Positions 24,372-42,328 of a DNA stretch of 64,000 bases are shown here, piece after piece. Source of the stretch: Escherichia phage vB_EcoM_G2285; the sequence record MK327933.1; one strand, given 5' to 3'. The translations under genes were made by a program, and so were the position numbers. The notes beneath the pieces were generated by a model. That model was not told the DNA's origin, did no database searches, and saw only the letters and a program-made list of their open reading frames with translations. Every line of letters starts with the position of its first letter. Position 1 is the first letter of the stretch.

Positions 24372-25007
24372 TCATTTTAAAAGGTCTTCACGATCTGAAT
24401 CTGAATTATGCTCAGGTGGAACCAAACGAGATTCAATATCATCCCACGTGTGTACACGTTGTGCAGTACGAGGAATGGCATCACGTTCACCACGGGCCAA
24501 CCAATAAATCGGTACATTGAGAATTTCTGCCGCATGGTCACAGTGATGAGCTAAATCGTCAACGTAACAAATTACGTTATATTTTGTTTTAGCTAGTTCG
24601 AATAATTGTTCCTTTGACGAATCATGACCACACATCATTACTTCAGAAAAGGCACCTGGGAACAAAGCATTCAAATTAAATTGTCTATTCAATCGAGCAT
24701 CAATTGAATCACCTAGCGCCGTCACGGCTACAAAATTATAGTCTTCTTTTAGTTTATTGATAACTCGAAGAGCATCTGAATAAGGCGCTAAGTAACGAAT
24801 AAAATCAGAGCGATTATATTTTTCTATTAATTGTTTACCAAGGTTATCGTCGGTATTGAATAGTTTACCAGGAGAAATAAATTTTTCATCCTGAATCATT
24901 TTTAAAATATGTTCTAATGGAAGATTATATTTTTGGGCAAAATAAGGAAGTCCAGATTGCCAGCTTAAACATACACCATCAATATCAGTCAAAATAGTAG
25001 GCTTCAT
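24372..25007 (-). CDS. HAD-superfamily phosphatase-like protein (30.2 position)
   Basis: N-terminal DIDGV motif (HAD DxDxV/T). Confidence 0.6.
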   Translation of the reverse strand: MKPTILTDIDGVCLSWQSGLPYFAQKYNLPLEHILKMIQDEKFISPGKLFNTDDNLGKQLIEKYNRSDFIRYLAPYSDALRVINKLKEDYNFVAVTALGDSIDARLNRQFNLNALFPGAFSEVMMCGHDSSKEQLFELAKTKYNVICYVDDLAHHCDHAAEILNVPIYWLARGERDAIPRTAQRVHTWDDIESRLVPPEHNSDSDREDLLK

Positions 25008-25471
25008 AAAGAGTCTCTTAATAGGTTTAACACATCAATAAATTCAGCTTCGGTTAGTATTGTATCATCTTTTGTTAGACCACTGGCCATGCTGTGCTTC
25101 AAAATTTTTCCTTTAGAGGCTTGTAAGGCATCACGAAACCCCTTGTTTTGGATCGCGGCTTCAAAATACGCATTTGTGTATAATTCTTTCCACGCTTCGG
25201 AGTATCTTGAAAACGGAACTCCTAACCAGAAGAGAGTCCCACGGTCCTGAGCTCTTGCATAAGACCTTCCAGCTTGCTGTGCGGCCAGTCCTGACAGCCC
25301 AAATATACGTCTTTGTTGTTCAACATTTTTCACCTTACATCCTTGGAGAAATCCTTCAAGACCTCCGAATTGAATACCATCCATAACAAAAGGCCATTGA
25401 GCAAAGTTACTTAATGCACACGACGGCCACTTGAAATTACTTCTTATTTCTAATTCAGACATCTTTAACAC
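25004..25471 (-). CDS. Possible NADAR/YbiA-like (DUF1768) protein (30.3 position)
   Basis: Pattern LSNF...F..DG..F.G.E...Q..K near the N-terminus resembles NADAR; inference, not verified. Confidence 0.45.
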   Translation of the reverse strand: MLKMSELEIRSNFKWPSCALSNFAQWPFVMDGIQFGGLEGFLQGCKVKNVEQQRRIFGLSGLAAQQAGRSYARAQDRGTLFWLGVPFSRYSEAWKELYTNAYFEAAIQNKGFRDALQASKGKILKHSMASGLTKDDTILTEAEFIDVLNLLRDSL

Positions 25472-27236: not shown

Positions 27237-27545
27237 TTACATAAGAAGCAAACGTTCTACCGGAGTACCATCAACCGAAATTACTTTATCAAGGCGGAAA
27301 GAACGCCACTGACCTAACTTGGTATCGAATGCTCGAACTGATTCACGAGGTTCAGAACGAACTTCTGTTGCCGGATTGTTATTTTCATATTTGACTTCAA
27401 GTTCATCGCGGGAGGCAAACATCGTACGAACATCACCGTTAGCCTTTTCAAATACAACACAATGAACGCCTACAGACAGAATAGTTTTAATACGTTCACG
27501 AAGAACCATAGTTTCTTGTTCAGTTAAAATCATATTATTCACCAC
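27237..27545 (-). CDS. Hypothetical protein (31.1 position)
   Basis: 102-aa ORF. Confidence 0.5.
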   Translation of the reverse strand: MVNNMILTEQETMVLRERIKTILSVGVHCVVFEKANGDVRTMFASRDELEVKYENNNPATEVRSEPRESVRAFDTKLGQWRSFRLDKVISVDGTPVERLLLM

Positions 27546-28116
27546 AAAAGTTTCGAATTTGTTCCCAATTCAGAGAACGAAGATTATTACGAGAGTACTG
27601 AATTACTTCAATACCAGCTTGTTTAAGAATGTCTGCCCAATTTTCAGGAGACCGGTCATATAATTCTGCATATACAACCTTTTTAATGCCTGACTGTGTG
27701 ATAGCTTTAGTGCAATCAGGACATGGAGAAAGTGTCGTATACAACGTAGCACCTTCAATAGAATTACCTTTACGAGCTGCAAACAAAATTGCATTCAATT
27801 CAGCATGGATTTCGTTATTAGCAGACCATACACTATGAGCAGCCCGATGTTCTTTAGCCAAAACAAAATTATCTGCCCGTCCAAATGCTGTAGTGCCTTC
27901 TTTATGTCCAGCAACGATGTCCGGGCTTGGTTTATTCTTCAACCAGCCGTTTTCGGATGCATGTTCGCAACAGTTTGTACCACCTGAAGGAGAGCCATTA
28001 TAACCTGTAGAAATAATGCGTCCATCTTTTTCAATGACGGCACCAACTTTCCATGAACAACATTTTGATTCTTGAGAAATCAAATAAGCAATTTGAAGAT
28101 ATGTGCTAGCTTTCAT
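27535..28116 (-). CDS. cd: dCMP deaminase
   Basis: 193 aa (T4 Cd 193); zinc-deaminase motifs HAE and PCxxC. Confidence 0.9.
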   Translation of the reverse strand: MKASTYLQIAYLISQESKCCSWKVGAVIEKDGRIISTGYNGSPSGGTNCCEHASENGWLKNKPSPDIVAGHKEGTTAFGRADNFVLAKEHRAAHSVWSANNEIHAELNAILFAARKGNSIEGATLYTTLSPCPDCTKAITQSGIKKVVYAELYDRSPENWADILKQAGIEVIQYSRNNLRSLNWEQIRNFCGE

Positions 28117-29108
28117 TATTGAACCTTATTAATATAAGTTAACAGCTCTTTAGTTTGTTCCCAACTGATGCACGCATCGGTAACGGAAACGCCATAGGAC
28201 ATATTATCAGAAATTTTTTGATTTCCTTCATGTAGGAATGATTCTATCATAATTCCTTTGACCAAATCATTAGCTGCTAAATTTTTACCAATACCAATTT
28301 GATTGCTATAATGCCCAGCAGCGTTTGCATGGCTACAGTCAACCATTACATAATGATTCAGACCTACTGCACTTGCTTTGTTAGAAGCTTCTTGAATATC
28401 AGAAGAATGATAGTTCGGGCCGTTGGTCCCGCCACGCAATACGATATGCGTATTCTGATTACCTTCAGCTTCAACAATGCCTACAGTACCATCGACGTCC
28501 ATACCCATATACCGATGAGGCCGGGCGGCACTATACATCGCGTCTGTAGCTACTTTAATAGAACCATTGGTCGCGTTCTTGAAGCCTACGCACATCGGTA
28601 GACCTGAAGCAATTTCACGATGTGTCTGACTTTCAGTCGTACGGGCGCCAATAGCAACCCATGAGAAAATACCAGAAAGATACTTAATCGTGAATGGGTC
28701 TAATACTTCAGTTGCTAACGGAAGTCCCATACGTAGAAGTTTACGACACAATGTTCGTGCAACTATAAGACCGTGGTTCATATCAAAACTTCCGTCAAGA
28801 TATGGATCATTTACAAGACCTTTCCAACCTACGGTAGTTCGAGGCTTTTCAAAATAAACGCGCATCACTAACAGAACATTAGGAAGACGAGTTTGAAGTT
28901 CAGCCAGACGTTTGCCGTATTCAACAGCAGCAATAGGGTCATGAATTGAACAAGGACCTACAACAATAAGTTTGCGTGGGTCTTCACCGTTCATAATCGA
29001 ATTAACTTGTTCGCGATGAGAAGCCACTTGTGATGCGTAAGCTTCCGACAAAGGAATAATCTCAGCCAGTTCTTTTGGAGAAATAAGTTTTCTGACGACA
29101 GGTAACAT
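28116..29108 (-). CDS. 3-deoxy-D-arabino-heptulosonate-7-phosphate (DAHP) synthase, class I AroG/AroF/AroH type
   Basis: 330 aa; blocks GPCSIHDP, RVYFEKPRTTVGWKGL, GARTTESQ, GFKN, LRGG, DCSHAN, ESFLHEGNQ and TDACISWE align to E. coli AroG; ATG with AAGGA RBS; stop overlaps cd start. Confidence 0.9.
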   Translation of the reverse strand: MLPVVRKLISPKELAEIIPLSEAYASQVASHREQVNSIMNGEDPRKLIVVGPCSIHDPIAAVEYGKRLAELQTRLPNVLLVMRVYFEKPRTTVGWKGLVNDPYLDGSFDMNHGLIVARTLCRKLLRMGLPLATEVLDPFTIKYLSGIFSWVAIGARTTESQTHREIASGLPMCVGFKNATNGSIKVATDAMYSAARPHRYMGMDVDGTVGIVEAEGNQNTHIVLRGGTNGPNYHSSDIQEASNKASAVGLNHYVMVDCSHANAAGHYSNQIGIGKNLAANDLVKGIMIESFLHEGNQKISDNMSYGVSVTDACISWEQTKELLTYINKVQ

Positions 29109-29116
29109 AACAATCC

Positions 29117-29305
29117 TTAGTAGATATAAACAGATTCTGATTCAACAATACCTTTAACCGGATTAGACAGGCTAAGTTGGTAGTACTCAGATTTATGACC
29201 ATTCTCGATAGTAATGAGATAGCTCTCATTATAGTGTTCCGTATACTCGAGTTGCTTCAACAAGACCATCACTGCATAATTTAAGATTAGTAATTTGGTC
29301 ACCAT
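29117..29305 (-). CDS. Hypothetical small protein (overlaps next ORF; real start may be internal)
   Basis: ORF only. Confidence 0.3.
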   Translation of the reverse strand: MVTKLLILNYAVMVLLKQLEYTEHYNESYLITIENGHKSEYYQLSLSNPVKGIVESESVYIY

Positions 29306-29465
29306 CTTTAGGATTAACGATTATGAGAAAAGAACGTGGAGATTCTTGAATAACTCGTAATGTTGCATCTTGGAAACGTTCAGACACTTTATTGATGAGT
29401 GCTTGAGCAAATTCTTTTACTTTAATCTGAAATTCGTGTACTGTAATTGGGTTTTCACTTAGCAT
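29229..29465 (-). CDS. Hypothetical protein
   Basis: 78-aa ORF just below an early promoter. Confidence 0.45.
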   Translation of the reverse strand: MLSENPITVHEFQIKVKEFAQALINKVSERFQDATLRVIQESPRSFLIIVNPKDGDQITNLKLCSDGLVEATRVYGTL

Positions 29466-29469
29466 TTCT

Positions 29470-29520
29470 ATTTCCTCATTTGTTGGTAGAGTTATAGTAT
29501 CACAACTCCACCATGTTGTA
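29470..29520 (-). promoter_or_regulatory. T4 early-type promoter
   Basis: Minus strand GTTTACAACATGG...TGATACTAT. Confidence 0.5.
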
Positions 29521-29525
29521 AACCA

Positions 29526-30211: not shown

Positions 30212-31298
<1,087 letters not shown>

Positions 31299-39601: not shown

Positions 39602-39913
39602 TTATACCGCCATTTTAGCTTTGATAGTTGGATGAGATTCGTAATTTTTAAGAACGAAATCAGAATGTGTCATCGTTCCAGTAACCCAGTCCATTTGGAT
39701 TTTTGTAGGCCAATTCTCAAAATTACTAGGCCAATTAATTTCAAGAGAACATAACTCTTTAGGTTCACGACGAAGAACTTCTTTGCATTGTTCTACATGA
39801 TTGCTGTAGATATGCGTATTGCCGCCTGAGAACACTAAATCACCTGGGATAAGGTTACACATCTTCGCTACAATATGAACTAACGTAGCATATGATGCAA
39901 TATTAAATGGAAG
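39602..39913 (-). CDS. td: Thymidylate synthase, exon 2 (the track's initial M is the intron's terminal AUG)
   Basis: Begins LPFNIASY...; 103 codons; junction matches T4 td splice site (...CAUAAUG|CU...). Confidence 0.85.
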   Translation of the reverse strand, partial: LPFNIASYATLVHIVAKMCNLIPGDLVFSGGNTHIYSNHVEQCKEVLRREPKELCSLEINWPSNFENWPTKIQMDWVTGTMTHSDFVLKNYESHPTIKAKMAV

Positions 39914-40929
39914 CATTATGTTCAGATAAGGTCGTTAATCTTACCCCGGAATTATATCCAGCTGCATGTCACCATGCAGATCAGACTATATCTCCAACTT
40001 GTTAAAGCAAGTTGTCTATCGTTTCGAGTCACTTGACCCTACTCCCCAAAGGGATAGTCGTTAGGCATTTATGTAGAACCAATTCCATTTATCAGATTTT
40101 ACACGATAAGTAACTAATCCAGACGAAATTTTAAAATGTCTAGCTGCATCTGCTGCACAATCAAAAATAACCCCATCACATGAAATCTTTTTAATATTAC
40201 TAGGCTTTTTACCTTTCATCTTTTCTGATATTTTAGATTTAGTTATGTCTGAATGCTTATGATTAAAGAATGAATTATTTTCACCTGAACGATTTCTGCA
40301 TTTACTACAAGTATAAGCAGAAGTTTGTATGCGAACACCGCACTTACAAAACTTATGGGTTTCTGGATTCCAACGCCCGTTTTTACTTCCGGGTTTACTG
40401 TAAAGAGCTTTCCGACCATCAGGTCCAAGTTTAAGCATCTTAGCTTTAACAGTTTCAGAACGTTTCTTAATAATTTCTTCTTTTAATGGATGCGTAGAAC
40501 ATGTATCACCAAACGTTGCATCAGCAATATTGTATCCATTAATTTTAGAATTAAGCTCTTTAATCCAAAAATTTTCTCGTTCAATAATCAAATCTTTCTC
40601 ATATGGAATTTCTTCCAAAATAGAACATTCAAACACATTACCATGTTTGTTAAAAGACCTCTGAAGCTTTATAGAAGAATGGCATCCTTTTTCTAAATCT
40701 TTAAAATGCCTCTTCCATCTCTTTTCAAAATCTTTAGCACTTCCTACATATACTTTATTGTTTAAAGTATTTTTAATCTGATAAATTCCGCTTTTCATAA
40801 ATACCTCTTTAAATATAGAAGTATTTATTAAAGGGCAGTCCTACAATTTAGCACGGGATTGTCTACTAGAGAGGTTCCCCGTTTAGATAGATTACAAGTA
40901 TAAGTCACCTTATACTCAGGCCTCAATTA
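39914..40929 (-). mobile_element. td group I intron (1016 nt) carrying I-TevI
   Basis: Starts UAAUUGAGGCCUGAGUAUAAGG on the minus strand right after exon 1 ...TTCTTGGGT; length equals the T4 td intron. Confidence 0.85.
40061..40798 (-). CDS. I-TevI: GIY-YIG homing endonuclease I-TevI
   Basis: 245 aa; N-terminal GIYQIKNTLNNKVYVGSAKDFEKRW; reads as T4 I-TevI. Confidence 0.9.
   Translation of the reverse strand: MKSGIYQIKNTLNNKVYVGSAKDFEKRWKRHFKDLEKGCHSSIKLQRSFNKHGNVFECSILEEIPYEKDLIIERENFWIKELNSKINGYNIADATFGDTCSTHPLKEEIIKKRSETVKAKMLKLGPDGRKALYSKPGSKNGRWNPETHKFCKCGVRIQTSAYTCSKCRNRSGENNSFFNHKHSDITKSKISEKMKGKKPSNIKKISCDGVIFDCAADAARHFKISSGLVTYRVKSDKWNWFYINA

Positions 40930-42328
<1,399 letters not shown>

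Follow-up and report, generated by a model that had tools for sequence, protein, structure and literature searches.

DAHP synthase (DAHPS) is the shikimate pathway's flux-controlling entry step. In the E. coli enzymes AroG and AroF the inhibitor site is capped by N-terminal residues from the partner subunit, and the first 8-9 N-terminal residues are said, after work by Shumilin et al. in 2002 and Jossek et al. in 2001, to play a part in inhibition. Within the AroG pocket, Q151 and S180 touch the main chain of the inhibitor and D155 makes a stabilising salt bridge; substitution P150L results in complete feedback resistance, and S180F and F209A/S also confer feedback resistance (PMC9529685).

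A DAHPS gene is already known in phages, being annotated in more than 200 phage genomes, and a 2020 preprint (10.1101/2020.01.19.911818) suggested that the Mosigvirus copy is an auxiliary metabolic gene (AMG) of unknown function. What is annotated as “phospho-2-dehydro-3-deoxyheptonate aldolase” in Mosigvirus and further T4-like phages, phrog_5045, which PHROGs places in the category “moron, auxiliary metabolic gene and host takeover”, is the same gene as the one described here. It is an AMG in that it encodes a host-type enzyme in a virulent phage, lies outside the core gene set and is variably present among close relatives. Other phage AMGs acting at flux-controlling host steps are likewise single host-type enzymes that vary among related phages; the phage DAHPS differs from them in its target, the shikimate pathway, and in that the literature lists the gene without studying it: genome papers mention it, and no enzyme assay, complementation or infection phenotype was found in the searchable literature. 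The novelty that a reading of the locus made from the sequence alone (hereafter, the sequence-only reading) had implied for this gene is overstated: most of its carriers have it annotated as DAHP synthase, PHROGs gives it a family of its own and the literature mentions it as a Mosigvirus AMG. Of the two grounds on which that reading would have given up novelty, annotation and characterisation, the first applies, while no experimental characterisation was found.

We analyzed a 64,000-nucleotide stretch (the window) of Escherichia phage vB_EcoM_G2285 (MK327933.1), a T4-like phage of the Mosigvirus type. Features of the locus are collected in Table 1. The sequence-only reading had placed a 330-aa ORF with its own ribosome binding site in the early cd-pseT region, translationally coupled to cd; the limits of the ORF proved exact, on the minus strand, and the Shine-Dalgarno sequence and the overlap with cd were both seen. 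The DAHPS stop codon TAA (28118-28116) and the cd start codon ATG (28116-28114) have one base in common, a layout typical of translational coupling. The flanking genes are closely related to those of RB69 (94% identity for cd and 95% for the resident cd.2). In alignments, the promoter-like site matches the cd.3-cd.2 gap of T4 almost base for base, and an early promoter is annotated in this gap in the T4 record. The DAHPS gene of the window is located downstream of this conserved T4-type early promoter, and judging from this position it is probably expressed early. The td and frd genes lie ca. 12 kb from DAHPS, also within the window; td is split, and an Rfam scan of it for group I introns gave no match at the gathering threshold.

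Table 1. Features of the DAHP synthase locus (positions are those of the window)
Feature	Position	Strand	Basis
DAHP synthase CDS, type I-alpha, 330 aa, ATG start	28116..29108	-	ORF call; Pfam, NCBIfam, PHROG and PDB matches
Shine-Dalgarno sequence AAGGA, 5 nt 5′ of the DAHPS ATG	29114..29118	-	Direct sequence reading
TAATG, DAHPS stop over cd start	28114..28118	-	Sequence reading
cd, dCMP deaminase, directly 3′ of DAHPS, same direction	27535..28116	-	PF00383, 1.7e-26
Resident T4/RB69-type cd.2 (DUF7320)	29229..29465	-	Pfam, 7e-35
Site resembling a sigma-70/T4 early promoter (TTTACA-N17-TACTAT, TG present), in the cd.3-cd.2 gap	29494..29522	-	Promoter scan
Degenerate second copy of cd 5′ end, ATGAGAGCTATCTCAT versus ATGAAAGCTAGCACAT at 28116	29210..29229	-	Window versus RB69 alignment; repeat comparison
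Remnant of donor phage cd.2 3′ end (..SYLITIENGHKSEYYQLSLSNPVKGIVESESVYIY*)	29117..29215	-	Alignment; partial DUF7320 match
Codons D137-G146 (DPFTIKYLSG), inhibitor-pocket segment	28671..28700	-	I141 = AroG P150, K142 = Q151, G146 = D155
Codon P171 = AroG S180, inhibitor main-chain-binding serine	28596..28598	-	Alignment; PMC9529685
Codon Y200 = AroG F209, feedback-resistance position	28509..28511	-	Alignment; PMC9529685

The ORF product is a type I-alpha DAHP synthase. The PF00793 search proposed in the sequence-only reading gave a strong match (E = 2.2e-75, 253.5 bits at a cutoff of 25.5), and the protein also exceeded the cutoffs of the equivalog model TIGR00034 for aroFGH (428.8 bits versus 173.2) and of NF009395 (457.1 versus 343). 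Its residues 1-330 aligned with profile positions 8-337 of 341 of phrog_5045 (E = 3.2e-181), and the E. coli AroF structure 6AGM was matched at the sequence level with E = 5e-105. The AlphaFold model (pLDDT 92.7, pTM 0.92) shows a (beta/alpha)8 barrel that is extended at its N-terminus and bears an additional beta-hairpin, the regulatory one, which is kept (strands 198-203 and 209-214); when compared by Foldseek with the N. meningitidis and E. coli DAH7PS enzymes, it gave a TM score of 0.96 and an rmsd of 1.4 Å. The profile, PDB and fold matches rule out a chance ORF or a misannotation. The E4P loop KPRT, the feature that tells DAHPS from KDO8PS, is intact at K88-P89-R90-T91, which together with the TIGR00034 score rules out KDO8P synthase or another PF00793 subfamily.

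As the sequence-only reading had claimed, the metal ligands and the PEP-binding Arg and Lys residues are all intact in the alignment with AroG, AroF and AroH. The motifs GPCSIHDP (C53), CSHAN (H260), ESFLHEGNQ (E289) and TDACI (D311) supply metal ligands that correspond to AroG C61, H268, E302 and D326 and are invariant in 124/124 aligned sequences, and PEP residues R83, K88, G154-A155-R156, K177 and R225 correspond to AroG R92, K97, G163-A164-R165, K186 and R234. Catalytic residues are also invariant across phage copies that are only 59-77% identical and come from isolates of seven annotated genera. We infer that the enzyme is catalytically competent and metal-dependent and that it would convert PEP and erythrose-4-phosphate to DAHP.

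The phage protein is 51% identical to Tyr-sensitive AroF (6AGM) and 47% identical to Phe-sensitive AroG (1KFL/1QR7), the range for AroH, AroG and AroF being 44-51%. With AroF and AroG it shares identical metal, PEP and E4P residues and the fold (TM 0.95-0.96), and it is AroF-like at two sites (in AroG numbering, a Pro at 147 and a Gly at 211); it is unlike both in a 1-aa insertion after RGG, in two short deletions near the C-terminus and in the inhibitor pocket. The AroG model NF006723 (365.6 bits, cutoff 568) and the AroH model NF009396 (385.6 bits, cutoff 463) were not reached, and no AroF-specific NCBIfam model was among the profile-search output. A true AroG orthologue is thus ruled out by the AroG-specific cutoff. 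Since the protein is nearer to AroF and fails both the AroG and AroH cutoffs, the label “AroG-type” that the sequence-only reading had given it is valid only loosely, in the sense of class I-alpha.

Bacterial homologues are at most about 55% identical to the phage enzyme, and the best of them (ca. 54-55%) is located in an ordinary chromosomal context. The GC content of the gene is 41.6% and its GC3 is 0.30, versus 52-53% and 0.51-0.57 for E. coli aroF, aroG and aroH; its codon-usage score is within the range of other window ORFs (z = -0.6), while the E. coli genes score z = -3.9 to -5.2 on the same scale. The low identity to the E. coli enzymes and to the best bacterial match and the phage-like codons rule out a recent capture from the E. 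coli host, in agreement with the earlier description of the gene as AT-rich, phage-like and no recent host fragment.

The phage enzyme has 52 residues before the catalytic Cys, versus 59-61 in AroH, AroG and AroF, i.e., 7-9 fewer, which bears out the earlier figure of about nine. The short N-terminus is common to all T4-like copies examined (isolates of seven annotated genera). The conserved inhibitor pocket of AroG, AroF and AroH, composed of P150, Q151, D155, S180, F209 and the N-terminal cap, is not conserved in the phage enzyme, where all five of these residues are substituted. The phage clade is set apart from the bacterial enzymes by just six positions (P150I, Q151K, D155G, S180P, F209Y and T223A in AroG numbering), five of which belong to a set of 11 that have been published as inhibitor-site or feedback-resistance positions (hypergeometric p = 6e-8). 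Each of these clade-specific substitutions is conserved at 96-100% among proteins that are 57-77% identical overall. Among the best 120 database clusters, a list that is skewed toward the query, the catalytic Cys is preceded by 48-53 residues in the 25 clusters of the phage clade, which show I/P-K/R at 150-151, Pro at 180 and Tyr at 209; bacterial-type matches have at least 58 residues before the Cys and retain Q151 and S/T180. This residue-level reading of the pocket was not found in the searchable literature.

The phage clade is naturally changed at the positions altered in the engineered AroG variants P150L, S180F, F209A/S and those of Q151, as well as in the C. glutamicum AroF designs Q159A, S188F and D163A; every T4-like copy examined has this set of changes at positions that metabolic engineers mutate for feedback resistance. 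The residues seen in phages (I, K, G, P and Y) differ from the engineered choices, co-occur and are evolutionarily fixed. Since the N-terminal cap is missing and five pocket residues are replaced, shut-off by Phe, Tyr or Trp has most likely been lost and the phage DAHPS would be naturally deregulated. Presence of the substitutions in all T4-like copies thus strengthens what had been a guess from the shorter N-terminus. If biochemistry confirms deregulation, it would explain how one gene opens the host aromatic pathway and would provide a natural deregulated enzyme for the production of aromatic compounds.

The substitutions are near-invariant rather than drifting, and the pocket could therefore still be in use, perhaps for another effector, rather than simply disabled. 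One can imagine that the enzyme remains allosteric, with the pocket re-tuned either to another ligand (for example, a metabolite that is anionic or specific to the phage) or to a partner protein, so that the phage itself sets the flux. The regulatory beta-hairpin scaffold kept in the predicted structure is consistent with this, as is the positive charge that Q151K adds to the site, and the conservation of the six substitutions at such overall divergence indicates constraint, not decay. However, there is no candidate ligand, loss of the N-terminal cap takes away part of the site, and the same residues are at the tight-dimer interface, so their conservation may be structural. We consider a re-tuned pocket unlikely. 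Its stronger form, in which the six substitutions have re-lined the pocket for a new effector or partner and made the entry to the shikimate pathway a valve under the metabolic state of the phage, is slightly more doubtful; were it true, biotechnology would at the minimum gain a DAHP synthase scaffold in which full feedback resistance has evolved naturally.

We think it rather probable, instead, that the gene provides a competent, early-transcribed and deregulated DAHPS that feeds the host shikimate pathway during infection. The enzyme would be transcribed early, together with cd, from the promoter between cd.3 and cd.2, and its rebuilt pocket would prevent shut-off by Phe, Tyr or Trp. The Enterobacterales host would provide the remaining enzymes of the pathway; across 135 kb of a close relative, no further shikimate gene is annotated. 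Since the step controls flux and the rest is host-supplied, one phage gene should suffice. During the shut-down of host gene expression, carbon would then keep moving into chorismate and the compounds made from it, namely the aromatic amino acids needed to build phage protein and possibly also pABA/folate. A benefit to the phage can be expected from this scheme, but since T4 and RB69 manage without DAHPS, any such benefit must be conditional.

The useful product may instead be another chorismate derivative, the main candidate being pABA/folate for the folate-dependent nucleotide enzymes td, frd and dCMP hydroxymethylase. The position of DAHPS in a nucleotide-metabolism region, its coupling to cd, the proximity of td and frd in the window and the presence of dCMP hydroxymethylase in a close relative all fit such a role. 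This support is purely positional, however, and the hyperplastic cd-pseT interval is crowded with small genes that are unrelated to one another; the close relative has no annotated pabA/B/C or fol gene, and folate is required only catalytically. We accordingly hold a folate-centred role to be about as doubtful as the valve. It is quite improbable that the products are irrelevant and the enzyme acts by draining PEP and/or erythrose-4-phosphate, thereby reshaping host PTS uptake or pentose-phosphate flux: an unregulated DAHP synthase would indeed use up both substrates, and close relatives carry genes for pentose-phosphate-derived sugars, e.g., arabinose-5-phosphate isomerase, but a drain does not require strict conservation of the full catalytic machinery and of a specific pocket signature, and RB69 has the arabinose genes but lacks DAHPS. 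A link between DAHPS and the Mosigvirus arabinosyl-hmC sugar genes is likewise unsupported, given that RB69 is without DAHPS and DAHPS-bearing genera are diverse.

The spread of the gene across T-even genomes was also determined, as the sequence-only reading had proposed. DAHPS is carried by 212 phage records, and in 212/212 the match covers at least 80% of the protein; 139 records are at least 95% identical, and the NicPhage protein is 100% identical to that of the window. Carriers include NicPhage, JS09, ST0, APCEc01, PhAPEC2, PEi20/26, X20 and EcS1; most of the 212 records annotate the gene as DAHP synthase and some as a hypothetical protein. The locus in relatives is the same, between cd.2 and cd. 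T4 and RB69 lack the gene; the slot is empty in RB69 and holds cd.1 in T4, in line with the sequence-only reading, which had put DAHPS outside the canonical T4 set and small cd.x ORFs in its place.

DAHPS has diverged in step with the flanking genes cd and pseT (Spearman 0.72), which, together with phage-like codons, argues that the gene has long been resident in phages and has been retained. Among five near-identical Mosigvirus copies dN/dS ranged from 0.07 to 1.5, with only 1-8 substitutions per pair, too few for the ratio to be informative. The least credible reading makes DAHPS an inert passenger, a decaying moron swept along by recombination, or else a misannotated relative with another activity such as that of KDO8P synthase. 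T4 and RB69 can dispense with the gene, and it adjoins a recombination scar; against this reading, it is full-length in every record, none of its catalytic residues varies among the genera sampled, its codons are fully phage-like, and the KPRT motif and a TIGR00034 score above the equivalog cutoff speak against KDO8PS.

The scar is located upstream of DAHPS. The degenerate repeat of the cd 5′ end marks the left junction of the inserted cassette. The adjacent cd.2 remnant, probably a pseudogene, aligns with the C-terminus of Kanagawavirus/Marfavirus-type Cd.2 and not with that of the resident type. As judged from these alignments, the scar shows that DAHPS came into an RB69-like backbone from another T4-like phage, and it provides a clean small example of accessory-cassette swapping at conserved gene junctions of T4-like phages. 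In other records, the remnant is annotated as a hypothetical protein of 41-62 aa.

The DAHPS gene is almost certainly one for a type I-alpha DAHP synthase, the entry enzyme of the shikimate pathway, since profile matches, conserved residues and model superposition all agree and every feature testable in silico is present. Its product matches PF00793 (2.2e-75), the NCBIfam equivalog TIGR00034 (aroFGH; 428.8 bits, cutoff 173.2) and the E. coli AroF structure 6AGM (5e-105), and is 51, 47 and 44% identical to the E. coli enzymes AroF, AroG and AroH, respectively. The metal ligands C61, H268, E302 and D326 and the PEP ligands R92, K97, G163-A164-R165, K186 and R234 (AroG numbering) are kept, as is the KPRT loop that binds erythrose-4-phosphate, and all these residues are invariant in 124 of 124 aligned sequences. 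The PF00793 match and the catalytic residues conserved in the AroF/G/H alignment thus support the class I assignment made in the sequence-only reading. From an alignment of 49 sequences, AlphaFold gave a model with mean pLDDT 92.7 that superimposes on DAH7PS structures from N. meningitidis and E. coli with a TM-score of 0.96 at 1.4 A and retains the extra beta-hairpin typical of type I-alpha enzymes.

The reading frame described earlier was recovered in the window, with its own Shine-Dalgarno sequence and an overlap with the dCMP deaminase gene, cd. The minus-strand gene order is pseT, three small ORFs, cd.2, DAHPS, cd, a 31.1-like gene, gene 31 and rIII; this is the order of the T4 cd-pseT interval, but DAHPS stands in place of T4 cd.1. 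DAHPS can reasonably be expected to be transcribed early, since a promoter-like site in the cd.3/cd.2 gap aligns with the corresponding gap of T4, for which the T4 record annotates an early promoter, and a sequence scan found no terminator-like site between it and DAHPS.

Features of the DAHPS region, of other parts of the window and of related loci (L-numbers, other phage records)
Feature	Coordinates	Strand	Basis or remark
DAHPS ORF, 330 aa, ATG start	28116..29108	-	ORF call in window
Shine-Dalgarno AAGGA of DAHPS	29118-29114	-	sequence
TAATG overlap: DAHPS TAA stop and ATG of cd, one base in common	28118-28114	-	sequence
dCMP deaminase (cd), next gene after DAHPS		-	PF00383, 1.7e-26
PseT polynucleotide kinase, upstream of DAHPS	30212-31111	-	
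Promoter-like site in cd.3/cd.2 gap	29522-29494	-	near base-for-base alignment with T4 gap
Small putative scar ORF, overlaps cd.2 end	29117-29305	-	degenerate cd start, then foreign cd.2 3' end
211-aa ORF	24372-25007	-	directly downstream of gp30.3 homologue
gp30.3 homologue	25004-25471	-	PF08010
Split thymidylate synthase (TS)	39602-41478	-	window
td exon 1	40927-41478	-	PF00303 profile positions 1-175 of 266
I-TevI-like GIY-YIG homing endonuclease ORF	40061-40798	-	
C-terminal TS segment	~39602-39916	-	
ORFs between DAHPS and cd	L008 3498-3839; L009 3483-3818; L010 3480-4049; L011 3457-4082		

The feature is already known. Phage NicPhage has an annotated protein of identical sequence, and DAHPS is present in 212 phage records: identity is at least 95% in 139 of them, 60-80% in 47 and less than 60% in 26. 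Most of these records call the product DAHP synthase or phospho-2-dehydro-3-deoxyheptonate aldolase; in several it is still a "hypothetical protein". PHROGs v4 places it in phrog_5045, category "moron, auxiliary metabolic gene and host takeover", and the phiC120 genome paper mentions a DAHPS domain (PMC8022965). A literature search found no enzymology, genetics or metabolomics of phage DAHPS. Several labels in the records are of note: phage JK45, whose DAHPS region is 98% identical to that of Mosigvirus phages, is filed as Tequatrovirus; the protein cluster P0001 is labelled an E. coli protein, and its 170,875-bp contig is a phage genome; and O157 typing-phage records label cd "ribD riboflavin biosynthesis protein" and pseT "zeta toxin".

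Feedback insensitivity had been guessed from a shortened N-terminus, and the N-terminus is indeed short, with 52 residues ahead of the catalytic Cys versus 59-61 in AroH, AroG and AroF. Residues D6 and D7 of the partner AroG subunit reportedly cap the inhibitor site, and AroF without Ile11 is said to be Tyr-insensitive. Changes in the inhibitor pocket itself are more telling in the alignment: AroG P150, Q151, D155, S180 and F209 correspond to I141, K142, G146, P171 and Y200 of the phage protein. According to a review on engineering the feedback control of DAHPS (PMC9529685), AroG P150L confers complete Phe resistance, and S180F and F209A/S are also resistant; Q151 and S180 (Q152 and S181 of AroF) contact the inhibitor main chain, S180 is "conserved across the species", and D155, which forms a stabilising salt bridge, is a design target.

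We aligned the DAHPS copies of seven T4-like isolates, six of other annotated genera plus the window's own (the Mosigvirus-like window, Kanagawavirus Entb_45 and PEi26, Winklervirus X20, Kagamiyamavirus EcS1, Marfavirus P545 and Bragavirus phiP4-3). These copies are 59-77% identical, and all seven have in common a short N-terminus and two invariant strings, LDPFTIKYL and SGLPM. Among the 120 best clusters from a search of 5.8 billion proteins, 25 belong to the phage clade, and every one of these has 48-53 residues ahead of the Cys, P180, K/R151 and Y209; the bacterial-type clusters, which are best matches to the phage query rather than a random sample, have at least 58 residues and keep Q151 and S/T180. 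With the two groups defined by positions 151 and 180, only six of 350 positions (150, 151, 155, 180, 209 and 223) are at least 90% conserved inside each group and different between groups. Five of the six are among the review's 11 inhibitor-site or resistance positions (PMC9529685; hypergeometric p=6e-8, the list having been drawn up after the alignment had been seen). N-terminal length splits the groups almost as cleanly, with 26 clusters at 53 residues or fewer versus 25 in the signature group. P0022, a divergent T4-like metagenomic copy, has K151 and P180 but retains P150.

A distant DAHP synthase (38% identical) with a long N-terminal extension, presumably acquired independently, is encoded by Aeromonas phage HJ05 (L012, 2899-4062; 79 kb, not T4-like). 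It has A-H at AroG positions 150-151 and P at 180, so it too departs from P-Q/S, and the metagenomic proteins P0109 and P0110 have A-G at 150-151 and P at 180. These residues may reflect recurrent deregulation.

The hosts of DAHPS-carrying T4-like phages are all Enterobacterales, which possess a complete shikimate pathway. Across 135 kb of a relative with 98% identity, no further shikimate genes are annotated; its remaining 35 kb presumably holds, by T4 layout, mostly structural genes. DAHP synthase is well established as the main control point for carbon entering the pathway (PMC9529685). Since the hosts have the full pathway and the phage appears to bring only this control-point enzyme, one early-expressed DAHPS that does not respond to Phe, Tyr or Trp would increase the flow to chorismate, or maintain it, during host transcription shut-off. 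The pocket residues make insensitivity to aromatic amino acids probable; the whole chain, including a physiological benefit to the phage, we favour on balance. Of the rival readings, a pocket re-tuned as a site for another effector is suggested by how little the six substitutions vary and by the beta-hairpin retained in the model. A second, with folate/pABA as the relevant product, rests on position, td and frd lying inside the window at ~39.6-42.1 kb and dCMP hydroxymethylase being present in a close relative. Further rivals are a drain on the substrates and a gene carried as an inert passenger. Feedback insensitivity leads to a precise prediction that can be tested: the DAHP synthases of T4-like phages should be natural feedback-resistant variants combining P150I, Q151K, D155G, S180P, F209Y and T223A with N-terminal truncation.

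Between the dCMP hydroxymethylase and DNA polymerase genes of JK45 (L020, NC_054940, 25043-30145), outside the window, a phosphoheptose isomerase, a GlmU-like bifunctional protein and an arabinose-5-phosphate isomerase are annotated. We take this cluster to be an RB69-type arabinosyl-hmC DNA-modification cluster; a link to DAHPS via the pentose-phosphate pool is speculation.

Recent capture of DAHPS from the host is ruled out by its phage-like codon usage and by the distance of the nearest bacterial proteins. Its GC3 (0.30) and codon score (z=-0.6) are within the range spanned by 35 other long ORFs of the window, from which E. coli aroF/G/H differ by 4-5 sd. The closest bacterial proteins, ~50-55% identical, belong to unrelated phyla, and no donor can be named; the best match, P0024, is encoded next to nfuA-like and metH genes, on a contig that looks chromosomal. 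Among T4-like copies, pairwise divergence of DAHPS correlates with that of the genes flanking it, cd and pseT (Spearman 0.72, p=2e-4), and every locus is arranged as cd.2-DAHPS-(cd.1-like)-cd, which points to long residence in T4-like phages.

The presence of the gene is variable even inside the genus Mosigvirus, since in the type phage RB69 (L013, NC_004928, 6743-7503) cd.2 abuts cd; in T4 (L002, 3619-4762) cd.1 occupies the slot. One or two added ORFs lie between DAHPS and cd in X20, EcS1, P545 and phiP4-3, those of X20 and EcS1 being about as large as T4 cd.1, and none in the window and the Kanagawavirus phages.

Alignment of RB69 with the window defines an exact indel. After the cd.2 stop, the window carries a degenerate second cd 5' end (ATGAGAGCTATCTCAT vs ATGAAAGCTAGCACAT), then ~100 nt, DAHPS and the real cd. 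The ~100-nt stretch translates to a Cd.2 C-terminus of the Kanagawavirus/Marfavirus type, not of the resident T4/RB69 type. The simplest reading of this arrangement is that a cassette of donor cd.2 3' end and DAHPS recombined into an RB69-like backbone, with the right crossover inside cd and the left junction ~16-20 nt into cd; alternatively, RB69 lost DAHPS through recombination of the two short repeats. The small ORF overlapping the cd.2 end, annotated in related records as a 41-62 aa "hypothetical protein", is probably not a gene; it resembles a pseudogene or a scar of recombination that records how the cassette entered.

Elsewhere in the window, the split thymidylate synthase resembles the classic T4 td intron, unlike td of the close relative JK45, which is uninterrupted; no group I intron matched Rfam at the gathering threshold in the window td. 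The 211-aa ORF has no Pfam match, and its N-terminal sequence (MKPTILTDIDGV...) resembles a HAD-type phosphatase motif.
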